Shown: positions 5,811 to 57,394 of the stretch, in pieces
How positions within the stretch are numbered: the first letter of the stretch is position 1
How the letters are laid out: the number at the start of each line of letters is the position of its first letter
Assembly: GCF_044704955.1 (NCBI RefSeq)
Contig: NC_091993.1
Location: 620,001 to 684,000, forward strand
DNA: 64,000 nt
DNA from: Pristiophorus japonicus
Lineage: Eukaryota
Direction: 5' to 3'
Program-made: the position numbers and the translations under genes
Notes under the pieces: model-generated
The model's input: the letters and a program-made list of their open reading frames with translations, nothing else
Told to the model about the DNA's origin: nothing
Database searches by the model: none

Positions 5811-5857
5811 CCAGCCACAGCATGTAATCTCCTGGGAGATGTAAAAAAGTAAGAAAC

Positions 5858-6661
5858 TGTAATATATCCACCTGTGAGTATGCTCACAGGATTGTTCAGC
5901 TGTTGCCGCCTGTATTTTTTGTGGACTGGAGGAGTCTGTGTTCCGTGTGTTTTTTCAGTGTGTGCGGTTGCAGCCCCTATTCCATTATTTGAAGGGGCTG
6001 CTCCTCAAATTCTGGTTGCACTTCAGTCCCACACTCCTGATCTTTGGGCACCCTGTGCGGGGGGGAGCGGGCAGGTCGGAAGGCCTCCTCGTAGGACTGC
6101 TCCTGGGCCTGACCAAAGGGGCCATCAGCCGGTCCAGGCAGCGGGTGGTCGAGGGGGTCGTACAGCCCAACTGCCTGCCTCTCTTCCGCGGTTACATCCG
6201 AGCCAGGGTGTCCCTGGAGATGGAGCACACGGTGTCCACCGGTACGCTCGCGGCCTTCTGAGAGAGGTGGGCGCGGAAGGGACTGGAGTCATCATTTCAA
6301 TAGGGAAGAACATTTTAATTAAATTTGATTTGTCAAGGTTCCCTTTAATGTTAGTTAATTTGTGGGGGTTTTTTGTGCCCTTACAAGAGGCGGCACTTGA
6401 ATTAACGTTCTATCAAAATAGTTGTAGAGCTGTTGCCTTGTGAGTGGCTTAGCCAGTCATGTGATGTTCACAAGACTCAATAAAACCCCAGCCAGTTGGG
6501 TCTAGGTCATCCATGATGAGGTATGCAGTTGTGAGCCTAGTGGATGAACTGGTAATGTGTAGTGTGATTGTTAAACCTTTGTTAATAAACCAACTAGTTC
6601 TTAATAGCAATGTGTTGCTATGAATTCTTAAGCAAAGGACCCATGAAGCAAATACATTACA
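5858..6661 (+). mobile_element. Solo-LTR-like element (TGTAAT...ATTACA), copy A, carrying a Tx1 insertion
   Basis: 6-bp terminal inverted repeats, two AATAAA; homologous to 33441, 48859 and 50256. Confidence 0.75.
5908..6422 (+). mobile_element. Tx1-clade LINE 3' end (ORF2 C-terminus plus 3' UTR)
   Basis: CIFCGLEESVF..F.QCVRLQPLFHYLKGLLLKFWLHFSPTLLIFGHPV resembles the Xenopus Tx1 ORF2 C-terminus; 15-bp TSD, 13/15 identical (5893-5907 / 6423-6437). Confidence 0.85.
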
Positions 6662-18954: not shown

Positions 18955-20119
18955 GTACTCTACAGGAGCCTCCTCCCATTCTAACTACCTCTTCGCACCC
19001 TGCCCCCTTCTCTCCCACCCCCCCCTCGTGTATGCATCAAGTCTCCCCTTAAATACATCAGTGCCACCTGCTCCAACCACTCCACGTGACAGCGAGTTCC
19101 ACATTCTCATCACTCTCTGTGTCACTTGTTCCAACTGGCATAGGTGTTGCTTCACTCATGTTTGTGCAGGATGGGTGAAGATGCTTCATGATAACACGGT
19201 GTTGCACCTTCTCAGCACAGCCGCTCCAGTATTCAGCCGTCAGGGAAGGGGGGTATTCGCAAAGATGGTGCAGTTTGGATGATTTTGAGTGGCACCTTTC
19301 TGTATTTGGTTGGATGTGGAGGTTGGGAAAGATTATTTCTAAACTTTCCTCCGTACTTGCTCTGCTATCTGCTGGCCTGTACCTTGCTCTCAGTACAGGT
19401 ACCTTCTTCGCACTTTCTGTGAAGATTGATGACATGGAGATAAAGGCAACATTTAAAGCTCGAGGTGTAGTTCTTAAACATATGAGGGCCGAAATTGCCC
19501 TCCGCCCCAAATGGGCAGATAATTAATGTTACATGAATATTCTCCGCCCCATGGATTCCCCATAGAGGGAAATTTTGATTTGTTGGGGCGGTATTTGGGG
19601 GTGGAAATGCGTCGGGTGCGGGGAGGGGGGAGGGGGGGGAGGCGGGCTGTGTCACTGACGCTTGGCAATGTCTCCCCCTTTCAGTTAAAGGGGAGGGCCG
19701 CTGAGAGCTCTGCAGCCACTTTAGTGGCACTCAGTGGACCACCAGGGTGGGCTTTGGCAGGGCGTGCCCGGCCGAACCTGTGGCCGCCATTGTTGGGCTG
19801 ACTTTAGAGTCGGCCGACAATTAAAACAAAATGACGGCCTTGGCAGAGCGCCCTCCCCTTTAAGGGCGGACACGCTACACAGCTACAGGCAGCTTCCCGC
19901 CAGGAAAGGCTGTCGGGGCACCGGCCGGCAGCTGCTCCCTTCCCGCGGGGCAATTTCCCTCACGGGGCAGAAAAGGGGTCAGCCAGCGCCGGGTGCGAAG
20001 GGGTCGGCACGTGTCCGATGGGGCGCGCCAGAGACCCATCTCCTCCACCCCCTGGCCTAGGGGCAATTTGGGTCGGGTCAGACCATCTGCCTGCTTCCAG
20101 TCGGAAAGACCTTACTGTC

Positions 20120-20491
20120 GGGAGCTCGGAGCAGCGCGAGTCCGGGGTCGGCGAGAGGCCTATAAAGGCCAGCGGGAGCTCGGAGCAGTCAGTCGAGGAG
20201 GCGGGAGCTCGGAGCAGCGCGAGTCCGGGGTCGGCGAGAGGCCTATAAAGGCCAGCGGGAGCTCGGAGCAGTCAGTCGAGGAGGCGGGAGCTCGGAGCAG
20301 CGCGAGTCCGGGGTCGGCGAGAGGCCTATAAAGGCCAGCGGGAGCTCGGAGCAGTCAGTCGAGGAGGCGGGAGCTCGGAGCAGCGCGAGTCCGGGGTCGG
20401 CGAGAGGCCTATAAAGGCCAGCGGGAGCTCGGAGCAGTCAGTCGAGGAGGCGGGAGCTCGGAGCAGCGCGAGTCCGGGGTCGGCGAGAGGC
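20120..20491 (+). repeat. 83-bp tandem monomers (about 4.5 copies) in the CR1 5' UTR
   Basis: Units start at 20120, 20203, 20286, 20369 and 20452; each full unit contains ggcctataaaggcc. Confidence 0.95.
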
Positions 20492-20573: not shown

Positions 20574-20658
20574 TGAGTAGTTTTTCTTTTTCTTCTTATA
20601 TTGGTCAGTAACTTTTAACATTGTTATTACCAGTTTAAGTGTATCTAAGGGTTAAGAC

Positions 20659-21606
20659 ATGGCAGGAGAGCTCGGTCGGGTGTTATGCTCCTCCTGTACC
20701 ATGTGGGAACTCAGGGACACTTCCGGTGTCCCTGACGACTACGTGTGCGGGAAGTGTATCCGCCTCCAGCTCCTGACGGTCCGCGTTACGGAATTGGAGC
20801 TGAGGGTGGATTCACTCTGGAGCATCCACGATGCTGAGAATGACGTGAGTATCACGTGTAGTGAGTTGGTCTTACCGCAGGGAAAGGGTCCACAGCCAGA
20901 TAGGGAATGGAAGACCAGCAGGAAGAGTAGAGCAAGGAAGGTAGTGCAGGGGTCCCCTGCGGTCATCCCCCTGCAAAACAGATACACCGCTTTGGGTACT
21001 GTTGAGGGGAATGACTCATCAGGGGAGGGCAGCAGCAGCCAAGTTCATGGCACCGTGGCTGGCTCTGCTGCACAGGAGGGCAAGAAAAAGAGTGGGAGAG
21101 CGATAGTGATAGGGGATTCAATTGTGAGGGGAATAGATAGGCGTTTCTGCGGCCGCAACCGAGACTCCAGGATGGTATGTTGCCTCCCTGGTGCAAGGGT
21201 CAAGGATGTCTCGGAGCGGGTGCAGGACATTCTGAAATGGGAGGGAGAACAGCCAGTTGTCGTGGTGCACATTGGTACCAACGACATAGGCAAAAAAAGG
21301 GATGAGGTCCTACGAAACGAATTTAAGGAGCTAGGAGCTAAATTAAAAAGTAGGACCTCAAAAGTAGTAATCTCGGGATTGCTACCAGTGCCACGTGATA
21401 GTCAGAGTAGGAATCGCAGGATAGCGCAGATGAATACGTGGCTTGAGCAGTGGTGCAGCAGGGAGGGATTCAAATTCCTGGGGCATTGGGACCGGTTCTG
21501 GGGGAGGTGGGACCAGTACAAACCGGACGGTCTGCACCTGGGCAGGACTGGAACCAATGTCCTCGGGGGAGTGTTTGCTAGTGCTGTTGGGGAGGATTTA
21601 AACTAA
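20659..21606 (+). CDS. CR1 ORF1p: zinc finger/leucine zipper plus SGNH esterase
   Basis: CSSC...CGKC; LELRVDSL; IGDSIVR, PGA, HIGTND and DGLH blocks. Confidence 0.93.
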   Translation: MAGELGRVLCSSCTMWELRDTSGVPDDYVCGKCIRLQLLTVRVTELELRVDSLWSIHDAENDVSITCSELVLPQGKGPQPDREWKTSRKSRARKVVQGSPAVIPLQNRYTALGTVEGNDSSGEGSSSQVHGTVAGSAAQEGKKKSGRAIVIGDSIVRGIDRRFCGRNRDSRMVCCLPGARVKDVSERVQDILKWEGEQPVVVVHIGTNDIGKKRDEVLRNEFKELGAKLKSRTSKVVISGLLPVPRDSQSRNRRIAQMNTWLEQWCSREGFKFLGHWDRFWGRWDQYKPDGLHLGRTGTNVLGGVFASAVGEDLN

Positions 21607-24590
21607 TATGGCAGGGGGATGGGAACCAATGCAGGGAGACAGAGGGAAACAAAAAGGAGCCAAAAGCAAAAGACAGAAAGGAGAGGAGGAAAAGTGTAGG
21701 GCAGAGAAACCCAAGGCAAAGAACAAAAAGGGCCACTGTACAGCAAAATTCTAAAAGGACAAAGGGTGTTAATAAAACAAGCCTGAAGGCTTTGTGTCTT
21801 AATGCAAGGAGTATCCGCAATAAGGTGGATGAATTAATTGTGCAAATAGATGTTAACAAATATGATGTGATTGGGATTACGGAGACGTGGCTCCAGGATG
21901 ATCAGGGCTGGGAACTCAACATTCAGGGGTATTCAACATTCAGGAAGGATAGAATAAAAGGAAAAGGAGGTGGGGTAGCATTGCTGGTTAAAGAGGAGAT
22001 TAATGCAATAGTTAGGAAAGACATTAGCTTGGATGATGTGGAATCTATATGGGTAGAGCTGCAGAACACCAAAGGGCAAAAAACGTTAGTAGGAGTTGTG
22101 TACAGACCTCCAAACAGTAATAGGGATGTTGGGGAGGGCATCAAACAGGAAATTAGGGGTGCATGCAATAAAGGTGTAGCAGTTATAATGGGTGACTTTA
22201 ATATGCACATAGATTGGGCTAGCCAAACTGGAAGCAATACGGTGGAGGAGGATTTCCTGGAGTGCATAAGGGATGGTTTTCTAGACCAATATGTTGAGGA
22301 ACCAACTAGGGGGGAGGCCATCTTAGACTGGGTGTTGTGTAATGAGAGAGGATTAATTAGCAATCTCATTGTGCGAGGCCCCTTGGGGAAGAGTGACCAT
22401 AATATGGTGGAATTCTGCATTAGGATGGAGAATGAAACAGTAAATTCAGAGACCATGGTCCAGAACTTAAAGAAGGGTAACTTTGAAGGTATGAGGCGAG
22501 AATTGGCTAGGATAGATTGGCGAATGATACTTAGGGGGTTGACTGTGGATGGGCAATGGCAGACATTTAGAGACCGCATGGATGAAGTACAACAATTGTA
22601 CATTCCTGTCTGGCGTAAAAATAAAAAGGGGAAGGTGGCTCAACCGTGGCTATCTAGGGAAATCAGGGATAGTATTAAAGCCAAGGAAGTGGCATACAAA
22701 TTGGCCAGAAATAGCAGCGAACCTGGGGACTGGGAGAAATTTAGAACTCAGCAGAGGAGGACAAAGGGTTTGATTAGGACAGGGAAAATGGAGTACGAGA
22801 AGAAGCTTGCAGGGAACATTAAGGCGGATTGCAAAAGTTTCTATAGGTATGTAAAGAGAAAAAGGTTGGTGAAGACAAACGTAGGTCCCCTGCAGTCAGA
22901 ATCAGGGGAAGTCATAACGGGGAACAAAGAAATGGCGGATCAATTGAACAAGTACTTTGGTTCGGTATTCACTAAGGAGGATACAAACAACCTTCCGGAT
23001 ATAAAAGGGGTCAGAGGGTCTAGTAAGGAAGAGGAACTGAGGGAAATCTTTATTAGTCGGGAAATTGTGTTGGGGAAATTGATGGGATTGAAGGCAGATA
23101 AATCCCCAGGGCCTGATGGCCTGCATCCTAGAGTACTTAAGGAGGTGGCCTTGGAAATAGCGGATGCATTGACAGTCATTTTCCAACATTCCATTGACTC
23201 TGGATCAGTTCCTATGGAGTGGAGGGTAGCCAATGTAACCCCACTTTTTAAAAAAGGAGGGAGAGAGAAAACAGGGAATTATAGACCGGTCAGCCTGACC
23301 TCAGTAGTGGGTAAAATGATGGAATCAATTATTAAGGATGTCATAGCAGTGCATCTGGAAAATGGTGACATGATAGGTCCAAGTCAGCATGGATTTGTGA
23401 AAGGGAAATCATGCTTGACAAATCTTCTGGAATTTTTTGAGGATGTTTCCAGTAAAGTGGACAAAGGAGAACCAGTTGATGTGGTATATTTGGACTTTCA
23501 GAAGGCTTTCGACAAGGTCCCACACAAGAGATTAATGTGCAAAGTTAAAGCACATGGGATTGGGGGTAGTGTGCTGACGTGGATTGAGAACTGGTTGTCA
23601 GACAGGAAGCAAAGAGTAGGAGTAAACGGGTACTTTTCAGAATGGCAGGCAGTGACTAGTGGAGTGCCGCAAGGTTCTGTGCTGGGGCCCCAGCTGTTTA
23701 CATTGTACATTAATGATTTAGACGAGGGGATTAAATGCAGTATCTCCAAATTTGCGGATGATACTAAGTTGGGTGGCAGTGTGAGCTGCGAGGAGGATGC
23801 TATTAGGCTGCAGAGTGACTTGGATAGGTTAGGTGAGTGGGCAAATGCATGGCAGATGAAGTATAATGTGGATAAATGTGAGGTTATCCACTTTGGTGGT
23901 AAAAACAGAGAGACAGACTATTATCTGAATGGTGACAGATTAGGAAAAGGGAAGGTGCAACGAGACCTGGGTGTCATGGTACATCAGTCATTGAAGGTTG
24001 GCATGCAGGTACAGCAGGCGGTTAAGAAAGCAAATGGCATGTTGGCCTTCATAGCGAGGGGATTTGAATACAGGGGCAGGGAGGTGTTGCTACAGTTGTA
24101 CAGGGCCTTGGTGAGGCCACACCTGGAGTATTGTGTACAGTTTTGGTCTCCTAACTTGAGGAAGGACATTCTTGCTATTGAGGGAGTGCAGCGAAGGTTC
24201 ACCAGACTGATTCCCGGGATGGCGGGACTGACCTATCAAGAAAGATTGGATCAATTGGGCTTGTATTCACTGGAGTTCAGAAGAATGAGAGGGGACCTCA
24301 TAGAAACGTTTAAAATTCTGACGGGTTTAGACAGGTTAGATGCAGAAAGAATGTTCCCAATGTTGGGGAAGTCCAGAACCAGGGGTCACAGTCTGAGGAT
24401 AAGGGGTAAGCCATTTAGGACCGAGATGAGGAGAAACTTCTTCACCCAGAGAGTGGTGAACCTGTGGAATTCTCTACCACAGAAAGTAGTTGAGGCCAAT
24501 TCACTAAATATATTCAAAAGGGAGTTAGATGAAGTCCTTACTACTCGGGGGATCAAGGGTTATGGCGAGAAAGCAGGAAGGGGGTACTGA
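21582..24590 (+). CDS. CR1 ORF2p: AP endonuclease plus reverse transcriptase (frame open from 21582; first ATG at 22188)
   Basis: CLNARS, ITETW, YRPP, GDFN, SDH; YRPVSLTS, QHGF, DFQKAFD, GVPQGSVLGP, FADD. Confidence 0.95.
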   Translation, partial: CCWGGFKLIWQGDGNQCRETEGNKKEPKAKDRKERRKSVGQRNPRQRTKRATVQQNSKRTKGVNKTSLKALCLNARSIRNKVDELIVQIDVNKYDVIGITETWLQDDQGWELNIQGYSTFRKDRIKGKGGGVALLVKEEINAIVRKDISLDDVESIWVELQNTKGQKTLVGVVYRPPNSNRDVGEGIKQEIRGACNKGVAVIMGDFNMHIDWASQTGSNTVEEDFLECIRDGFLDQYVEEPTRGEAILDWVLCNERGLISNLIVRGPLGKSDHNMVEFCIRMENETVNSETMVQNLKKGNFEGMRRELARIDWRMILRGLTVDGQWQTFRDRMDEVQQLYIPVWRKNKKGKVAQPWLSREIRDSIKAKEVAYKLARNSSEPGDWEKFRTQQRRTKGLIRTGKMEYEKKLAGNIKADCKSFYRYVKRKRLVKTNVGPLQSESGEVITGNKEMADQLNKYFGSVFTKEDTNNLPDIKGVRGSSKEEELREIFISREIVLGKLMGLKADKSPGPDGLHPRVLKEVALEIADALTVIFQHSIDSGSVPMEWRVANVTPLFKKGGREKTGNYRPVSLTSVVGKMMESIIKDVIAVHLENGDMIGPSQHGFVKGKSCLTNLLEFFEDVSSKVDKGEPVDVVYLDFQKAFDKVPHKRLMCKVKAHGIGGSVLTWIENWLSDRKQRVGVNGYFSEWQAVTSGVPQGSVLGPQLFTLYINDLDEGIKCSISKFADDTKLGGSVSCEEDAIRLQSDLDRLGEWANAWQMKYNVDKCEVIHFGGKNRETDYYLNGDRLGKGKVQRDLGVMVHQSLKVGMQVQQAVKKANGMLAFIARGFEYRGREVLLQLYRALVRPHLEYCVQFWSPNLRKDILAIEGVQRRFTRLIPGMAGLTYQERLDQLGLYSLEFRRMRGDLIETFKILTGLDRLDAERMFPMLGKSRTRGHSLRIRGKPFRTEMRRNFFTQRVVNLWNSLPQKVVEANSLNIFKRELDEVLTTRGIKGYGEKAGRGY

Positions 24591-25978: not shown

Positions 25979-27142
25979 TTTGACAAGGTGCCACATAAAA
26001 GGTTACTGCACAAGATAAAAGTTCACGGGATTGGGGGTAATATATTAACATGGATAGAGGATTGGCTAACTAACAGAAAACAGAGAATCAGGATAAATGG
26101 GTTATTTTCTGGTTGGCAAACAGTGACTAGTGGGTGCCACAGGGATCGTTGCTGGGTCCTCAACTATTTACAATCTATATTAATGACTTGGATGAAGAGA
26201 CCGAGTGTACTGTAGCCAAGTTTGCTGATGATACAAAGATGGATGGGAAAGCAAGTTGTGAGGAGGACAAAAAATCTGCAAAGGGATATAGACAGGCTAA
26301 GTGAGTGGCAAAAATTTGGCAGATGGAGTATAATGTGAGAAAAATGTGACATTATCCAATTTGGCAGAAAAAGTAGAAAAGCAAATTATAATTTAAATGG
26401 AGAAAAATTGCAAAGTGCTGCAGTACAGAGGGACCTGGGGGTCCTTGTGCATGAAACACAAAGTTAGTATGCAGGCACAGCAAGTAATCAGGAAGGCAAA
26501 TGGAATGTTGGCCTTTATTGAAAGGGGATAGAGTATAAAAGCAGAGAAGTCCTGCTGCAACTATACAGGTATTGGTGAGGCCACACCTGGAATACTGCGT
26601 ACAGTTTTGGTCTCCGTATTTAAGGAAGGATACACTTGCATTGGAGGCTGTTCAGAGAAGGTTCACTTGGTTGATTCTGGAGATGAGGGAGTTGACTTAT
26701 GAAAATAGGTTGAGTAGGTTGGGCCTATACACATTGGAGTTCAGAAGAATGAGAGATGATTTTATCGAAACATATAAGATAATGAGGGGGCTCGACAAGG
26801 TGGATGCAGAGAGGATATTTCCACTCATAGGGGAAACTAAAACTAGGGGACATAATTTCAGAATAAGGGGCCACCCATTTAAAACTGATATGAGGAGGAA
26901 TTTCTTCTCTCAGAGGGTTGTAAATCTATGGAATTCTCTGCCCCAGAGAGCTGTGGAAGCTGGGTCATTGAATATATTTAAGGCGGAGATAGACAGATTT
27001 TTGAGCAATAAAGGAGTAAAGGGTTATGGGGAGCGGCAGGGAAGTGAAGCTGAGTCCATAATCGGATCAGCCATGATCTTATTAAATGGTGGAGCAGGAT
27101 CGAGGGGCCGAATGGCCGACTCCTGCTCCTATTTCTTATGTT
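25979..27142 (+). mobile_element. 5'-truncated, frameshifted CR1 (RT region to 3' end)
   Basis: FDKVPHKRLL..., KFADDTK, RPHLEYCVQFW; 3' tail. Confidence 0.92.
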
Positions 27143-33440: not shown

Positions 33441-33719
33441 TGTAATGTATTTGCTTCATGGGTTCTTTGCTTAAGAATTCATAGCAACACATTGCTATTA
33501 AGAACGAGTTGGTTTATTAGCAAAAGGTTTAACAATCACACTACACATTACCAGTTCTTCCACCAGGCTCACAAGCACATGTCTCATCGTGGATCCTCCG
33601 AGCCCAACTGGCTGGGGTTTTATTGAGTCTTGTGAACATCACGTGACCGGCTTAGCCACTCCCAACTCTACAGCCACACACACCTGTGTGCATACTCACA
33701 GGTGGACGTGTGCATTACA
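33441..33719 (-). mobile_element. Solo-LTR-like element, copy B (no Tx1)
   Basis: tgtaat...attaca; reverse complement of copy A without its insert. Confidence 0.8.
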
Positions 33720-38155: not shown

Positions 38156-39631
38156 CCAATGTCTGCCTGTCGTGTTAAATTTTCCTTTACTAGTTTGAAC
38201 CCGTGTCCCCTTGTCCAACTCACGCAATGTACTTTAGCTCTGAGTTGTAAACAAGTGCTGCAAGAATCCCCGGCTTAAGGTAGACGGACAAACCGGTTGG
38301 AAAGACAGACGCTTAGATCTATATCAAAATGTCACTGCGGGATAATGGACATATCTCCAGATTAAAGAACGTTAAGCAAACAGAAAACTAAGATCCATCA
38401 GTGTCGTGTTTCAAGTACTGCACAGTTTTTGCGTTCCTTTATCATTAAATGCTTATTTTGGCACAAAGAGGATTCATTACTGCTTAACTTATTGAATTGG
38501 GTATTTGGATTTTGCTCGTGACCTTTTATCAAGTAAAGAGTGAAAATCTGACTTTATTGCGTAATATTTATTTGTGATGCGTATTATGGCTTTGGGGAAA
38601 CTCTCAAAACGAAACTTCATGTCAAAAAATGTGCAAGTGGTTCATCCAGTCAGATAGCGCAAGGTTAGTTGTGTAAAGTCCTGGAAATGTGTCAAGATAC
38701 AACATGAAGCTGTGCTAACTGGGTCACAGAATCCCTGGCACAGAGCGTTTCGGTCGTTTCTTTAAGTGACACCACGTGTGTGACACTGGCATTATCTCAG
38801 TAAAAGCCGGGTTGAATTTAATTACACCGACACATCGCCAAAGTCACAATTACCCTCAGCAGCATTGCCAGCAGGAATTTCAGGCTTGCAAACCCGAAAT
38901 TACTGCCATCTAATCCAGGAGCGCGGAAAATGGAGGCATCCATGACAGACGACATCCTTGGAAAGGTACAAAAAGATAGTTATTCTGAAAATGACGGCCT
39001 GCCCATATGTCTGAAAACCATTGTTGGTGCCTTCTGGATTTGGGATCTACCTACAGGAGGACTTGAAAGCCTGCAATTCCTGATAGCTGTGCTTTTTAAC
39101 CAGTGCTTTCTTTCAACAGCCCTCCTTAACTTATAACTTATCCCAGGAATGATGCCAACAGTGTGCCTCCTCTTGAACTTTCTTTGAACCGGGAGAATCT
39201 GTCTTTTGTTTTTCCTCTTTTTTTCCCAAACCATCTCTTTCAAATAAATAAAAAAAGCACTTCCATTTAACGTGGAACAGGGGGAGGCCATTCAGCCCAT
39301 GAGCCTGTTCCGCTATTCAATTGGAGTGCATAGCTGATCTTTATCTTAACCCCATTTTCCTGCCTTGGTTGTGTAACACTTAATACTCTCGCCTCTCAAT
39401 TTCATTCTTGAAATTTTCAATTGCCCCCCCAGCCTCAACTGCTTATTGGGAGAGAGAGAGCTCCTGATTTTCACTAGCCATTGTGTAAAGACAGCTTCCT
39501 GACATCACCCCTGAATGGTCTAGCACTAATCTCTAGGTTATGACCCCTTATTCTGGACTCCCCACAAGAGGAATGTTTCTCTCTATTAACTCCTTTAATC
39601 ACCTTTAACAATCACCCATTAATCTTCTATA

Positions 39632-41478
39632 AACATAAGAATTCGGAACAGGAGTAGGCCATTTAGCCCCTCGAGCCTGCTCCGCCATTCAACAAGATCA
39701 TGGCTGATCTGGCCGTGGACTCAGCTCCACTTACCCGCCCGCTCCCCATAACCCTTAATTCCCTTATTGGTTAAAAATCTATCTATCTGTGACTTGAATA
39801 CATTCAATGAGCTAGCCTCAACTGCTTCCTTGGGCAGAGAATTCCACAGATTCACAACCCTCTGGGAGAAGAAATTCCTTCTCAACTCGGTTTTAAATTG
39901 GCTCCCCCGTATTTTGAGGTTGTGCCCCCTAGTTCTAGTCTCCCCGACCAGTGGAAACAACCTCTCTGCCTCTATCTTGTCTATCCCTTTCATTATTTTA
40001 AATGTTTCTATAAGATCACCCCTCATCCTTCTGAACTCCAACAAGTAAAGACCCAGTCTACTCAATCTATCATCAGAAGGTAACCCCCTCATCTCCGGAA
40101 TCAGCCGAGTGAATCGTCTCTGTACCCCCTCCAAAGCTAGTATATCCTTCCTTAAGTAAGGTGACCAAAACTGCACGCAGTACTCCAGGTGCGGCCTCAC
40201 CAATACCCTGTACAGTTGCAGCAGGACCTCCCTGCTTTTGTACTCCATCCCTCTCGCAATGAAGGCCAACATTCCATTCGCCTTCCTGATTACCTGCTGC
40301 ACCTGCAAACTAACTTTGCAAACTAACTTTTTGGGATTCATGCACAAGGACCCCCAGGTCCCTCTGCACCACAGCATGTTGTAATTTCTCCCCCTTCAAA
40401 TAATATTCCCTTTTACTGTTTTTTTTCCCAAGGTGGATGACCTCACACTTTCCGACATTGTATTCCATCTGCCAAGCCTTAGCCCATTCGCTTAACCTAT
40501 CTAAATCTCTTTGCAGCCTCTCTGTGTCCTCTACACAACCCGCTTTCCCACTAATCTTAGTGTCATCTGCAAATTTTGTTACACTACACTCTGTCCCCTC
40601 TTCCAGGTCATCTATGTATATTGTAAACAGTTGTGGTCCCAGCACTGATCCCTGTGGCACACTACTAACCACCGATTTCCAACCCGAAAAGGACCCATTT
40701 ATCCCGACTCTCTGCTTTCTGTTAGCCAGCCAATTCTCGATCCATGCTAATACATTTCCTCTGACTCCACGTATCTCTATCTTCTGCAATAACCTTTTGT
40801 GTGGCACCTTATCGAATGCCTTTTGGAAATCTAAATACACCACATCCATCGGTACACCTCTATCCACCATGCTCGTTATATCCTCAAAGAACTCCAGTAA
40901 ATTAGTTGAACATGATTTCCCCTTCATGAATCCATGTTGCGTCTGCTTGATTGCACTATTCCTATCTAGATGTCCCGCTATTTCTTCCTTAATGATAGCT
41001 TCAAGCATTTTCCCCACTACAGATGTTAAACTAACCGGCCTATAGTTACCTGCCTTTTGCCTGCCCCCTTTTTTAAACAGAGGCGTTACATTAGCTGCTT
41101 TCCAATCCGCTGGTATATCCCCAGAGTCCAGAGAATTTTGGTAGATTATAACGAATGCATCTGCTATAACTTCCGCCATCTCTTTTAATACCCTGGGATG
41201 CATTTCATCAGGACATGGGGACCTGTCTACCTTGAGTCCCATTAGCCTGTCCAGCACTACCCCCCTAGTGATAGTGATTGTCTCAAGGTCCTCCCTTCCC
41301 ACATTCCTGTGACCAGCAATTTTTGGCATGGTTTTTGTGTCTTCCACTGTGAAAACCGAAGCAAAATAATTGTTTAAGGTCTCAGCCATTTCCACATTTC
41401 CCATTATTAAATCCTCCTGCTCATCTTCTAAGGGACCAACATTTACTTTAGTCACTCTTTTCCGTTTTATATATCGGT
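39632..41478 (-). mobile_element. 5'-truncated CR1 (RT domain to 3' end) nested in an older CR1
   Basis: RT motifs in ORFs 40310-41491 and 39721-40377; frameshift from a tandem duplication of tgcaaactaactt near 40304-40330; older CR1 at about 39280-39630 and 42155-42335. Confidence 0.93.
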
Positions 41479-41511
41479 AAAAGGAATACAAGTTTTAAGG
41501 GGGGAAACTGT

Positions 41512-48858: not shown

Positions 48859-49681
48859 TGTAATGTGTGCACCAGTGAGGTTGCTCACCGGTTGGTAGAG
48901 CTGTTGCCCACCATGTGGGGGCTGCCTGTCTTTTACCAGGAACTTCTGCGGTCTGGAGGAGTCCGTGTTCCACGTGTGTGTGCAGTGTATGAGGTTGCAG
49001 CACCTCTTCCAATATCTGAAGGGGCTGCTCCTCAATTTCTGGTTGCACTTCAGTCCCACGCTCCTGATCTTTGGGCACCCTGTGCGGAGGGGAGCGGGCA
49101 GGTCGGAAGGCCTCCTCGTAGGCCTGCTCCTGGCCAAGATGGACATTAACCGGTCCAGGCAGCGGGCGGTCGAGGGGGTCGTTCAGCCCGACTGCCTGCC
49201 TCTCTTCCGCGGTTACATCCGAGCCAGGGTGTCCCTGGAGATGGAGCACGCGGTGTCCACCGGTACGCTCGCGGCCTTCCGCGAGAGGTGGGCGCCGGAG
49301 GGACTGGAGTGCATCATCACCCCCGGCAACCAAATTTAAATTTGATCCTTAATGTCTAAAGTTTAATTTGTTTAAGTTTGTCGGTTTTAGTGCCCCTTTA
49401 ATAAGGGGACACTTGTATTAATGTTTCAACTTAAAATAGTTGTAGAGCTGTTGAGTTGGGAGTGGCTCAGCCAGTCACGTGATGTTCACAAGACTCAATA
49501 AAACCCCAGTCAGTTGGGTTCGGGGGATCCACGATGAGGCAGGTGGTTGTGAGCCTGGTGGGTGAACTGGTAATGTGTAGTGTGATTGTTAAACCTTTCG
49601 CTAATAAACCCAATTAGTTCTTAATAGCAATGTGTTAGTATGAATTCTTAAGCAAAGAACCCATGAAGCAAATACAATACA
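48859..49681 (+). mobile_element. Solo-LTR-like element, copy C, carrying a Tx1 insertion
   Basis: tgtaat...aataca; homologous to copies A, B and D. Confidence 0.78.
48909..49440 (+). mobile_element. Tx1-clade LINE 3' end
   Basis: FCGLEESVFHVCVQC (CCHC-like)...AFRERWAPEGLECII; TSD (g/t)gtagagctgttg (48894-48906 / 49441-49453). Confidence 0.87.
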
Positions 49682-50255: not shown

Positions 50256-50512
50256 TGTAATGTATGCACCTGGTGAGCATGCTCACAGCTGGGAGTGGCT
50301 TAGCCAGTCATGTGATGTTCACAAGACTCAATAAAACCCCAGCCAGTTGGGTTCGGGGGATCCACGGTGAGGCAGCTGGTTGTAAGCCTGGTGGATGAAC
50401 TAGTAATGTGTAGTGTGATTGTTAAACCTTTGTTAATAAATCAAATAGTTCTTAAGAGCAATGTGTTGCTATGAATTCTTAAGCAAACCACCCATGAAGC
50501 AAATACATTGCA
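50256..50512 (+). mobile_element. Solo-LTR-like element, copy D (no Tx1, target deleted)
   Basis: tgtaat...attgca. Confidence 0.8.
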
Positions 50513-51403: not shown

Positions 51404-52591
51404 ATGGGGCCTAAGCTTTCCCTGCCTTTACTTGTAACTGTTCACACACTGGTTACTGAAAGGATCAATCGAAGAGGTGGCAGAGTAATGCGTAGACGGA
51501 GACAGAAGAGGAAACCGTACAGCCAATGAAGGTACTTGGAAAAGCAATCTTACCTGAACATGTCTGAAAATGCTTGTCTTCGGAGGCTGCGATTCCGGAA
51601 GGAGGGCATGGATGAGATATGTCAACTTGTCAAGCCTTTCAACACCATCAGAACCGCACTGTCCATTGAGGTGAAGGTTGCTGCTGCCCTAGCCTTCTAC
51701 GCATCGGGATCTTTTCAGGCTTCAGCTGGCGACATCTGCCATATCTCTCAGCACGCTATACACTGCTGCATTCGACAGGTGACTTTACGCTCGCAGGATG
51801 GACTTTATACGCTTCCCAGTGACCAGGGAGGCACAGACCGGGAGGGCTTTGGGTTTCTCGAGAATAGCAGACTTCCCCAAGGTGCAGGGAGCAATAGACT
51901 GCACGCACATTGCCCTGAAAGCATCCTTAAAGAACGCGGAGGTGTTTCGTAACAGAAAGGGGTTCCACTCACTAAATGTGCAGCTTGTTGTCGACCACAA
52001 TCAAACAATTTTAACAGTGAATGCTACATTTCCTGGCAGCATTCATGATGTGCACATCTTATGTTTGTCAATCAGCCAGAAGGTCACGGTTGGATGCTGG
52101 GGGATAAAGGATATGGCCTTGCCAGTTGGCTCATGACCCCTCTTCGTAATCCCGTCACTGAAGCACAGAAACTGTTTAATGAAAGTCACATAGCGACTCG
52201 CAACATCGTTGAAAAGACAATTGGAGTCCTAAAGCAGCGCTTCAGCTGCCTGGATCATACGGGAGGCAGCCTACAGTACCACCCTGACCAGGTAGCAGAG
52301 TTTATTGTGGTGTGTTGCATGCTGCATAACCTAGCCAAAAAGAGAGGACAAATAATGCCAGATCATGCTGCAGGTCCACCTCCAAAAGGAGATGAGACAG
52401 AAGAGGCAGCCGGTGAGGATGAAGAGGAAGAACAGGCGGGAGAGGACACGGGCGAGGACATAGGGGAGCGCAATCAGCCTGGCCATCTAGCTCCGGTACC
52501 ACCACACCTCTCCCGAAGACCAGTAGCCAGTGGCAGTTACACGGCCGCTAAGCTTTTGCGTCAGCAGCTCATTAATAAACGCTTCGCGTGA
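51404..52591 (+). pseudogene. Harbinger DDE transposase (HARBI1-like) with a premature stop and two frameshifts
   Basis: RLRFRKE, AIDCTH, NRKGFHSLNVQ, PGSIHD, LGDKGY, RNIVEKTIGVLKQRF, CCMLHN. Confidence 0.92.
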
Positions 52592-53030
52592 ACTATTAAT
52601 TGTGGATATTCAAATGTTCAGTTACTGTTAGGGTTAATCAAAAGTTTCATTTGCGTGGGGTTTCCTTGTTGTCTTGCCTCACTGGTTTATCATCTGACTT
52701 AGTTTAAGTAAAGTTTAAAGTACTGGCATAGTAAAGGTACTGGTATAATAACAATAAACAAACAAATATGCATGAAAAACTGTACGTTTGAAAACTAATG
52801 TAACTAAGAGAGAAGGCACAAAAGTTGTTGAATAATTTTTTTTTTCATTAGCAAAGATAGAATTTTTTAAATTAACTAATGAACAACACCCTCCCTCCAA
52901 CCCCCCGCTCCCCCCCCACCCCCCCGCCCCGCAGCATCCCACCCTTCCCTCAAATCCCCAAAACATAAAGAAATTGAACATTTAAGTAACAATAACATTT
53001 ATGGAACTATTGAGAAGCACTCCCCCCTCC

Positions 53031-54711
53031 CTACCTGCGGCCACGTTTCCCTCCAGATCCTGTCCCACCCCGTGTTCGCACCCCACCTGCCCGTTTTGGT
53101 CTACGCAGACAGACACGAATGCGTTGTGCAGTTTGTGATGACAAGATTTCCTGCCGTGGTGGAGGTGACGGAGCGGAAGCAGAAGCCTCCGGCTCCACTT
53201 CCGAGTCAGGAGGAACTGTGTCCTCCGTACTCGCTCGTGCGCTTTGGGGTCTCGCTGCGAGTGGACATGACACCTTGGGGTGCAGCGTGTGTCCAGCCAG
53301 CAACGCATGCCGTAGGGCAGTTCCCTAATCGCCTGCAACGTCTCCCGAGCAGTCTGTGACTGCTCAGAAGACCAGCTGGAGAAGTGCGTGCAGAACTCGC
53401 TCCAGGTTGTGGAGAACTGGTTCCAATTTGATGAGAAACCCGCGAACTCCTGGATAAGGTTGAGACCGATCGCGACCGTCTCCTTGCACAGGGATAGTAA
53501 GCTCTCCGTCTGGTCCTCTGTGGTAGGCGATTGCATAGCGTGCTGACTGGACCTCCGTAGGGTCGGCGTGCAATGTCACACGCCTTGGTGTCACCACCTG
53601 CACACCGCTTGGTCCCGGTGCCTCATCCATCTCAACCGAGGTGGCCGCAGGCCCACACAAAAAACATTTCTTCCTCCTCCTCCTCCTCCTCCTGTCTGCA
53701 GTAGCTCCTCCTCTGGCTCTTCCTCCTGCGAAGTTCCTGAAGGTTCAGTGCTCCATGGACACTTGTTGACCTTTGAAAGACAAATGAAATTTATTAACAA
53801 TGTTTAAAAATTCAAATCAATACATCTCAATTTTTCAAGAACTCAAAACATTACAATGCTTTCCATTACCCCATATGCACAAACGATCACCAGGCCTAAC
53901 ATGACCTCATTCGAAGATCAATAGTACATCTCAATTATATATCAAATTACATTATAATTGCATAACATTACATGCGTAACTAAGATATATGTAGTATTTA
54001 CTATTGATTCACAAATTGCACAATGCACAGTTCTCATTACTCACGTGACTCAAGGGTGGGTTCGGCCACACCACGGGTTGTGACTGAATGGCTTTCTGGC
54101 CCCACCAAGGCCACCGCAAGCTCCTCGTAAGCACTTAAAGACTGGAGCATGGCACAGCCCCCGCCCGTCCTGCGTTGCTCGCGGTGGCTGATAGATATCT
54201 TCGTCTGTAAATGATAAGGTAACATTGCACGGCATAAGCAAATGGATTTGGCAATAAACATTTAAGACTGACAGATTTAAATGTTCAATTACAAATTTGC
54301 ATTACATTGCATAGGAATACAATATTTCATACCATAACATTCAACTTTATGCTGGGGTACATAAATTTATTCATAATTTAGTTATGTTTAAAAATTACGA
54401 AATAACATTGCAGATTCTAGTTACAATTTCCATACATCATTAAATAATATATATGGATGATTTCAAATATAAATTTCAACTTTGGCAGCCGCCAGTAGGC
54501 TGTTCCATCTTTTGTGGCACTGGTTCGGTGTCCGGGCTTCATTTGATGCCGATGTGACCATGTCGGCAATCTCTGCCCAAATCCTCCGATAGGCACAGGG
54601 TGGAGGTTTCCCAGGCCCACTCCGTGTCAGATCCTCCCACCTCGTGCTGACTATATTCACCAGGGCCTCATTGGCCTCCTCGCTGAAGGGCTTGGCCCTT
54701 CACCTTTCCAT
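53031..54711 (-). pseudogene. Harbinger Myb/SANT (trihelix-like) DNA-binding gene; exons about 54711-54481, 54204-54045 and 53770-53031
   Basis: PFSEEANEALV...W...IWAEIA...RTPNQCHKRWNSL; RRTGGG; acceptors ttacag and ttcaaag, donor gtgagt; TGA at codon 4. Confidence 0.8.
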
Positions 54712-56258: not shown

Positions 56259-56948
56259 GCTCCACAGCACTCCCGGGGCCAACAGCACTCACGAGGCCCA
56301 CCTCCCGAGGCCCAAAGCACTCTCTAGACACACAGCACTCCCAGGACCCCTCCCTGGCCTATCTCCCGGGGCCAACAGCACTCACGAGGCCCACCTCCCA
56401 AGGCCCAAAGCACTCTCTAGACACACAGCACTCCCAGGACCCCTCCCTGGCCTATCTCCCGAGGCCCACAGCACTCTCTAGGCCCATAGCACTCCCGGGG
56501 CCAACAGCACTCACGAGGCCCACCTCTCGAGGCCCACAGCACTCCTGAGACCCACCTCCCAAGGCCCACAGCACTCCCGGGGCCAACAGCACTCACGAGG
56601 CCCACCTCTCGAGGCCCAAAGCACTCACGAGGCCCACCTCCCGGGGCCAACAGCACTCCTGAGACCCACCTCCCAAGGCCCAAAGCACCCTCTAGACACA
56701 CAGCACTCCCAGGGCCCACGGTGCTCTCGAGGCCCACAGCACTCCCAGGGCCCACGGTGCTCTCGAGGCCCACAGCACTCCCAGGGCCCACCTCCCAAGG
56801 CCCACACCGCACTCTAGGCCCACAGCACTCCCAGGACCCCTCCCTGGCCTATCTCCCGAGGCCCACAGCACTCTCTAGGCCCATAGCACTCCCAGGGCCC
56901 ACCTCCCAAGGCCCACCTCCCGAGGCCCACAGTATTCCCGAGGCCCAC
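56259..56948. repeat. Minisatellite of ggcccacagcactcc / gaggcccacctcc subunits
   Basis: Mixed 14-18-bp units with a longer block duplicated (caggacccctccctggcctatctccc three times). Confidence 0.9.
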
Positions 56949-57394
56949 TGCTGGCCTGCGATCGCCCACTACCTGTTCTCCATCCCTCTCCTCTCCCAGC
57001 ACTTCGCTGAGAGCCGCTGCCGGCAAGGCAGGTGGCCCACATTCGGATCGCTCGACATGTGTGAACTGCCTCTGTAGACGGGACAGGTCCCGGCAGCTCG
57101 TCTGGACTATTAAGTCAAGACCTCTTCCAAAAACAGGCCCAAACCAATTACCCCCCACCTAGCAAGTCTACAACAGTCACGTGTAGGCTTGATTCCTGAG
57201 TTGAGAATACACTAGTCAGTGAAAAAATGACCATGGAGAGCAGGTTTAATACTGTGGTAAATGCCTTATTTACCAGAAATCTTCCACTGCCAGCAGTAAG
57301 CACTTGCTTTACATATTTAAATACACATTTGTTATCTGTGTCAGCCTTGGCTCAATGGTAGCACTCTTGCCCCTGAGTCTGAAGGTTTGAAGGT

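Follow-up and report, generated by a model that had tools for sequence, protein, structure and literature searches.

A Tx1L-lineage LINE inserts repeatedly at one site of a probable solo LTR in Pristiophorus japonicus and has likely moved on to CR1-type LINEs

Described Tx1 elements and the LINE of Pristiophorus

Among described systems, Tx1L of Xenopus laevis (UniRef YTX2, P0039) closely resembles the LINE reported here. The two ORF2 proteins (1,299 aa here vs. 1,308 aa in Tx1L) are 49% identical overall and 64% identical in the reverse transcriptase (RT), whereas RT identity to most teleost relatives is ~50%. Both have an APE endonuclease, and both occupy a fixed site inside another transposon, as the available parts of two papers describe for Tx1L (PMC1950540, PMC4494074). 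The host of Tx1L, however, is the piggyBac-type Tx1D, whereas the hosts here are an LTR-like repeat and CR1-type LINEs. Further, the hairpin loop of our element is 3 residues shorter, and several targets are used within one young lineage.

Crocodilian Tx1 families offer a second comparison. According to the available text of Kojima 2015 (PMC4494074), Tx1-8_Crp and Tx1-4_AMi prefer LTR retrotransposons; together with Tx1-Mar and Tx1-9_AMi, the preferences cover LTR, Mariner or Harbinger elements, which resembles the LTR targeting in Pristiophorus. The same text reports two unrelated sites in one host, tandem insertions that sandwich a target-site duplication (TSD; SINEU-3) and the exclusion of hitchhiking by 5'-truncated copies, all of which have likenesses here. 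By contrast, the crocodilian families are old (85-87% identical to consensus) and cluster with Keno, and the covered parts of the text mention neither a LINE as target nor a relic of a former target nor arrays with polar growth. Targeting of LTRs is thus ordinary for the Tx1 clade, having already been reported in crocodilians (PMC4494074). The parts of PMC6719617, PMC4640811 and PMC3747384 that were available contain only Tx1L, Keno and general statements. A full-text literature search, as far as the accessible text went, returned no shark Tx1 target study, no LINE-targeting Tx1 family and no target relic; absence from print is not established by this, because Repbase and most subscription papers lay outside the search. 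What appears to be new is a likely change of target over a short sequence distance that left a 5' fossil, the targeting of one LINE by another, arrays that grow with polarity and are probably self-templated, and the existence of intact copies, with which direct tests become possible.

Keno, the Tx1 element that targets U2 snRNA, shares with our element its clade and a precise 3' junction, and U2 contains TGTAGTATCTGTT, which resembles the LTR target. This likeness is at chance level, however (911 of 2,000 shuffles score as high), and a U2/Keno ancestry of the target was rejected on this ground. No insertion of the present lineage was seen beside U2 in the U2 locus examined, and the flanks of our element are not U2. 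At G000:C1003 and L091, U2 genes in a tandem array with a period of ~770 bp were seen, as were fragmented U2 copies next to an intact one.

The initial annotation of this DNA, made from truncated copies, had proposed recovering a full-length Tx1. A protein search from the window fragment (the window being the whole 64,000-nt stretch analysed) indeed reached intact copies, 7.2 kb long, in which the ORF1 frame has 703 codons and the ORF2 frame 1,306, and many copies proved full-length with open ORFs. ORF2 contains APE, RT and zf-RVT domains (PF03372 E=5.5e-10 and PF00078 E=8.4e-38 in intact copy L116), and it matches L1-EN and the LTx chimera in an endonuclease comparison. The zf-CCHC match of ORF1 is weak (E=0.0043, below the curated cut-off); Pfam gave no match on the window's short ORF2 pieces, and Rfam none in the host repeat or the intact Tx1 element. 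By similarity, we assign the LINE to the Tx1 clade and, within it, to the Tx1L lineage. The named close protein relatives come from cartilaginous fishes. One other relative, P0033 from Acipenser sinensis, carries a contamination flag at its source; its RT is 71% identical to that of the Pristiophorus element, above the frog or turtle relatives, and the likeness may reflect contamination or horizontal transfer.

Insertion at one site of a 274-bp repeat

The window holds four TGTAAT...ATTACA copies of a host repeat, all at the places given by the initial annotation, along with two empty targets in CR1-type LINEs (Table 1). As claimed there, copies A and C have a common Tx1 3' end at the same place and in the same orientation, and the dyad is real, ending 2 nt upstream of the site. 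Other claims stood in part. The duplication, given as 13-15 bp, is 13 bp; the extra CC is present in A and absent in C. Target deletions had been reported for both empty copies. Copy D has indeed lost its target, and the missing ~18 nt are bounded by two AG dinucleotides; copy B, which has no matching 5-bp TSD, aligns with the intact site ungapped, with 6 substitutions in 32 nt. Both A and C start within ~10 nt of the CxFC-coding region, as noted, but at no single common junction: on the 7,193-nt intact copy, the 5' junction of A lies near position 6531, and that of C joins a 40-nt ORF2 piece from position 5812 to position 6540. The LINE in copy A belongs to an old, short-UTR class and is 87% identical to L116.

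Table 1. Features of the window (positions count from its first nucleotide)
Feature	Position	Strand	Remarks
Copy A, whole	5858-6661		host repeat split by Tx1 3' end
Copy A, 5' arm of 274-bp host repeat (likely solo LTR)	5858..5892	+	dyad at 5871-5890
Copy A, upstream copy of 13-bp target duplication	5893..5905	+	2 mismatches vs. downstream copy
Copy A, 5'-truncated Tx1L-lineage LINE	5906..6422	+	ORF2 end and short 3' UTR; tail AAAATAGT
Copy A, downstream target duplication	6423..6435	+	TGTAGAGCTGTTG
Copy A, 3' part of host repeat	6436..6661	+	two AATAAA motifs; ends ATTACA
Copy B, empty host repeat, 279 bp	33441..33719	-	target 33668-33680: 4 substitutions, no deletion
Copy C, whole	48859-49681	+	host repeat split by Tx1 3' end
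Copy C, 5' arm of host repeat	48859..48893	+	5-bp TSD GTTAG/GGTAG
Copy C, upstream target duplication	48894..48906	+	1 mismatch vs. downstream copy
Copy C, 5'-truncated Tx1	48907..49440	+	tail AAAATAGT; own 5' junction
Copy C, downstream duplication (49441-49453) and 3' part of host repeat	49441..49681	+	
Copy D, empty host repeat	50256..50512	+	~18 nt including whole target deleted between 50288 and 50289
Empty CR1a site TTCATGCACAAGGA	40337..40350	+	antisense inside CR1-type LINE at 39628-41494
Second empty CR1a-type target	about 26442-26455	-	inside another CR1-type LINE copy

The window contains several other repeats. An apparently young CR1-type LINE at 20656-24590 (+) encodes a GDSL esterase in ORF1 (316 codons) and EN-RT in an open ORF2 of 1,002 codons, and a perfect 83-bp tandem repeat (20119-20491) lies just upstream of it. 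Broken DDE_Tnp_4 transposase pieces, which we take to be Harbinger-like, occupy the plus strand at 51530-53575, with a 197-codon frame on the opposite strand. A degenerate minisatellite is found at 56262-56957.

The host repeat is likely a solo LTR, judging from its ends, flanks and motifs. Complete empty copies are mostly 272-275 bp long; they start with TGTAATGTAT and end with its reverse complement, giving TG..CA ends and a terminal 10-bp inverted repeat, and they carry two AATAAA motifs on the same strand. When lengths from 3 to 7 were compared, the flanks matched as a 5-bp duplication only. The mean identity of the 5-bp TSDs was 0.69 vs. 0.30 +/- 0.04 for shuffled flanks (n=30 loci with both ends, a set that includes L031, which pairs the left end of copy C with the right end of copy D) and 0.75 vs. 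0.30 in 15 of 20 position-ordered empty copies; 17/30 and 11/15 host copies, respectively, matched at 4 or 5 of 5 positions. This combination of TG..CA ends, 5-bp TSDs and a pair of AATAAA motifs on one strand is characteristic of LTRs of the Gypsy or BEL type. A piggyBac-type target duplication is TTAA; the TSDs here are variable 5-bp sequences, which sets the repeat apart from a host like Tx1D. No copies among L001-L060 had flanks in common that would point to an internal region, and because no such region was found, we can only infer the LTR label.

The evidence for targeting comes from searches of the 5.9-Gb genome. The initial annotation had suggested tabulating Tx1 3' flanks; they are non-random, with the target motif following 28 of the 30 best matches of the copy A 3' end (A included). 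A sample free of 3'-flank bias was drawn with an ORF2 30-mer that had 5,073 exact matches (control, 0) and misses the youngest subfamily. Of thirty units taken in chromosome order, 22 ended at the LTR motif, two of these being units of the same array; a CR1 site accounted for 1, other sites for 6, and 1 could not be read. Host-repeat sequence was present in the fetched flank of 19 of the 22. The six other sites all start with TG, five of them with TGT, and at least five have an upstream duplication; preference for the LTR site is therefore strong, not absolute. A pattern joining tail, target and LTR had 2,664 exact matches in the genome and its reversed control none, which excludes chance. With the same downstream 25 nt, exact patterns found these 2,664 occupied sites vs. 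1,033 empty intact ones, an occupancy of ~72% among exact-match (that is, well-preserved) sites. Kojima 2015 used a threshold of more than 20% of flanks of one sequence type; the proportions here are 22/30 and 28/30 for the LTR site and 20/20 for the CR1a site described below.

These insertions are independent events. They lie behind CAGGTT with 13-bp duplications and are often 5'-truncated: among 65 candidate occupied 5' junctions, 44 could be mapped to the element, at 37 distinct positions, the other 21 being mostly chance motif matches, full-length 5' ends or 3'-UTR-only inserts. (Duplicate loci, namely L061-L090 and several of L151-L180, were left out of the junction, array and divergence counts, and L181-L210 out of the latter two.) In one locus, L232, a whole 7.2-kb element cleanly splits one host copy. 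Contigs from a second study of the same organism contain target-to-Tx1 joints at several Tx1 positions. Two other organisms carry relatives of both elements; none of their contigs spans the junction by 31 nt on each side, and no RNA source was among the matches listed. We are practically certain, therefore, that this Tx1-clade LINE has entered one site of the host repeat many times over, in independent events.

This result bears on several proposals. The initial annotation envisaged a Tx1 family specialised on an LTR. Repeated targeting of the repeat is borne out; exclusivity is not, given a second LTR site, the element's own 5' UTR, occasional unique sites and, in the younger subfamilies, two CR1 sites. 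Loss of the target as an escape from insertion, also put forward there, finds no support in view of the undeleted copy B, the 1,033 exact intact empty sites and a comparison of 30 host copies, 11 of them empty, in which D alone had a deletion. Nor does the dyad stand out as the recognised feature: it could not be told apart from the six bases before the nick, and the CR1, self and unique sites, inspected by eye, are without one.

Two alternatives concern the nature of the host and its insert. The alternative already raised in the initial annotation is that one ancestral LTR-Tx1 composite was amplified, here by the LTR element's own machinery. The similar starts of copies A and C and the shortness of most Tx1 copies speak for it. 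The wide spread of 5' junctions nevertheless refutes it; the junction of C differs from that of A, several Tx1 age classes sit at the same LTR site, full-length inserts exist and intact empty sites abound, so that we give the composite almost no credence. The other alternative places the host among the non-autonomous DNA transposons, with terminal inverted repeats of 10 bp flanked by 5-bp TSDs; this would affect the target's label only. Its inverted-repeat ends and uniform 274-bp length would suit such an element, as would the failure to find an internal region, a recurrent primer-binding site (PBS; none among the 100 listed of 720 PBS-pattern matches) or a polypurine tract (27 purine-run matches, with no common upstream region in the 12 examined). 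Against this stand the Gypsy/BEL-like combination of features and the coverage of the PBS search, 100 of 720 matches. We consider the transposon label improbable and retain that of a likely solo LTR.

Sites in CR1-type LINEs and head-to-tail arrays

Two CR1-type LINE families, named CR1 here from their anatomy (APE-RT ORF2, esterase ORF1), are host to younger subfamilies, which differ by 2-5% and lie antisense at homologous positions. Of 150 matches, 20 copies with intact frames were fetched, and every one ends in AAAAGAGT, followed by TTCATGCACAAGG or a close variant. This CR1a site has a 14-bp duplication, and 6,088 exact CR1a junctions occur genome-wide. The flanking sequence corresponds to ORF2 of a CR1-type LINE in antisense, and its other strand reads QRDLGILVHE; it is 96% identical to window positions 40337-40541, and a related CR1-type LINE in the window has the GDSL ORF1 and EN-RT ORF2. 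Truncated copies, whose 5' ends differ from one another, occur in this CR1 context as well and are therefore not passengers. In another CR1 family, the corresponding position, TCTGTGGACAAGCA, is the site of a slightly older subfamily, CR1b.

Some older copies use yet other sites. One is a second site in the host repeat, GTGGA^TGAACTGG (L211, L309, L316, L321, L324 and L325, with a duplication in L321). Another is a self site just before the element's own ORF1, GTGGG^TGTAGCCC (L238, L305, L315 and L320), which has TGTAG in common with the LTR target. At a non-CR1 site, L138 has three tandem units, each repeating the same ~125-nt foreign filler at its 5' junction.

Copies are stacked head to tail, adjacent units being separated by a single target copy. 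Among RT matches, runs reach ~10 positions at 7.2-kb spacing, and both ends of one run were fetched. Such runs were seen at G000:C1:213.77-213.84 Mb, C1:144.99-145.05 Mb, C1:210.46-210.51 Mb and C1:240.94-241.01 Mb; most of the matches in them have open 1,306-codon frames, and each run is a head-to-tail array of intact Tx1 elements within one CR1 copy. In LTR-site arrays, the younger class lies upstream in 14 of 14 informative pairs (21 ties), and the LTR-proximal tails are of the old type in 89 of the first 100. New copies therefore seem to enter mainly the upstream duplication, which keeps the LTR-side flank; growth at the downstream duplication is at odds with the upstream position of the younger units.

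Array neighbours also resemble each other at their 5' ends. A 5' end was common within 6 nt to 37 of 71 truncated neighbours (25 of 40 loci) vs. 1.6% of units from different loci. Rare alleles common to neighbours are found at 19.8/kb in the first 30 bp vs. 0.6 for other copies, and sharing then falls to ~2/kb. The simplest reading of these patterns is that a new cDNA may anneal to the resident neighbour and be finished from it. Gilbert and colleagues, in 2002 and 2005, are said to have described chimeric L1 insertions completed on a resident L1, with the cDNA annealing to the homologous copy and giving a duplication. Those events are reported as rare and as seen in cultured cells, whereas about half of the neighbouring pairs are concerned here, and the site is regenerated by each insertion.

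Direction of the likely switch and the endonuclease

The 5' ends of full-length copies suggest the order in which targets were used. At the LTR site, such copies start with GAGGCGTGGCC directly after the duplicated target. At the CR1b site, the copy's own duplication is followed by GGTGGAGCTGTTG and then by GAGGCGTGGCC, and we read this GGTGGAGCTGTTG as the LTR target carried along. The relic matches at 11-12 of 13 positions in 20 of 23 CR1b junctions, most of them retrieved by a relic-seeking pattern; unselected CR1b copies show GGTGGAGCTGTTG or GGTGGAGCTTTG, more changed. In CR1a copies, the relic is further decayed and one base shorter. Two observations on these 5' ends may be added. The CR1-site copies (e.g. 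L116:1120-1145) begin with CCAAT and then a GGCGTGGC-like box, which may be an internal promoter derived in part from the old target. An extra G precedes the target copy in the full-length 5' junctions of L182, L183, L199 and L331, and not in L329, L330 and L332; it is possibly a reverse-transcribed cap.

Divergence from the class majority, measured over 320 nt of ORF2, averages 6.4% (n=28) in the short-UTR old LTR class, to which copies A and C are assigned by tail and UTR length, 6.6% (n=10) in the other old LTR class and 4.2% (n=22) in the young LTR class. It is 2.6% (n=8) for CR1b and 1.3% (n=52) for CR1a, the CR1a value being lowered by a search that favoured intact copies. Distances between classes rise stepwise, from 1.6 to 5.6%. 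The fall in divergence from LTR to CR1b to CR1a therefore points to a stepwise switch in that order, which we regard as likely.

The endonuclease seems to have barely changed across this switch. Among 45 endonuclease copies, those of young LTR-site and CR1b-site elements show no fixed difference and are intermixed in the tree; CR1a endonucleases fall together on one side of a branch (rough support, 83/88), and C67S is present in 28 of 28. Our candidates are C67S and two changes at the hairpin loop or next to it, R196V and I201V. Residue 196 falls within this hairpin, between the equivalents of L1 T192 and S202, and the loop has been linked to target selectivity (PMC1950540, in the part available). 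R196 occurs in 4 of 9 LTR-site vs. 0 of 36 CR1-site copies of the 45-copy set. In a direct test, 40 of 157 R196 copies were taken, 13 of which had no readable 3' end; the 27 readable ones were at the main LTR site (15), the second LTR site (4), their own element (3), elsewhere (3) and at CR1 sites (2). The last two rule out R196 as a strict marker of the LTR site, and R196V and I201V appear to track the switch without defining it. Because of these two copies, the switch may not lie in the endonuclease alone; C-terminal residues 1098, 1102, 1124 and 1195 also shift at the switch.

Three rival accounts have to be weighed against a stepwise switch and neighbour-finished arrays. Targeting may be set mainly by RNA-DNA homology or by a domain other than the endonuclease, with the RNA 5' end matching the LTR target and helping to finish insertions. 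The near-identity of young LTR-site and CR1b-site endonucleases, the target 13-mer at the start of full-length elements and the C-terminal shifts all agree with this; 5'-truncated copies without that RNA end nonetheless keep the exact 3' junction, and the isolated endonuclease of Tx1L nicks little besides its own target (PMC1950540, in the part available). We therefore find this account doubtful. A single enzyme of broad specificity might also have served throughout, with no stepwise switch, the apparent order reflecting when each host family was abundant while LTR sites filled. High occupancy of exact LTR sites would fit, as would the off-target sites and a 3'-UTR type found at both LTR and CR1b sites (L132 and L191/L205). 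Yet 1,033 intact LTR sites stand empty and none of 20 intact young copies is at one, and the CR1a copies are set apart by their branch and by C67S, so that a broad enzyme strikes us as improbable. Equally hard to favour is an origin of the arrays without neighbour-finished new insertions, in which the 13-bp repeats served for unequal crossover or tandem duplication and 3' gene conversion came afterwards. It would explain why neighbours have common 5' junctions and why some rare alleles are common along the whole length (2/kb beyond 300 bp vs. 0.2). But array neighbours are only 91-95% identical, their 3' UTR classes differ in strict polarity (14/14), and the rare alleles that they have in common are concentrated about tenfold in the first 30 bp.

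Our preferred account is thus one of independent insertions of a Tx1L-lineage LINE at a preferred repeat site, likely by a sequence-selective endonuclease and target-primed reverse transcription, the lineage having likely moved later to homologous sites in two CR1-type families; as a whole, we hold it to be very probable. The ORF2 APE endonuclease would cut at CAGGTT^TGTAG on the bottom strand and, 13 bp beyond this point, on the top strand, and target-primed reverse transcription would copy the element at the nick. The duplication would recreate the site, and mainly its upstream copy, which keeps the LTR-side flank, would be reused, so that arrays grow leftward. New cDNA would often anneal to the resident neighbour and be completed from it, copying the neighbour's 5' junction. 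An enzyme relaxed toward sites sharing G-rich/GG-N-W^T could have taken up CAGGGA^TCTGTG and then GGGA^TTCATG in CR1 copies. The old target would have been carried along at the RNA 5' end while specificity relaxed and then re-tightened onto the CR1 sites.

We lean, with less assurance, toward a fuller version of this history. One Tx1 lineage would have switched target twice within ~5% divergence, from an LTR-like repeat to CR1 family b and on to CR1 family a, becoming a LINE parasitic on a fixed site of another LINE. Only two or three endonuclease substitutions would have been involved (R196V and I201V at the specificity hairpin, then C67S), and the old target would persist as a 5' fossil. Polar, self-templated arrays would record the order of subfamilies like strata, including intact 7.2-kb arrays that are probably still active.

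Target changes of site-specific LINEs are usually inferred from families too distant to map the cause. Here, the LTR-site and CR1-site subfamilies are only 2-5% apart and have intact ORFs, and the residues or domains that redirect insertion are therefore testable by a few swaps. This bears on the long-standing question of what determines the specificity of APE endonucleases, and on retargeting retrotransposons for gene insertion. The ordered arrays provide an internal clock for the succession of subfamilies. With ~70% of one repeat family's exact-match sites and thousands of copies of a second LINE occupied, the parasitism of one transposon on another becomes measurable in this genome.
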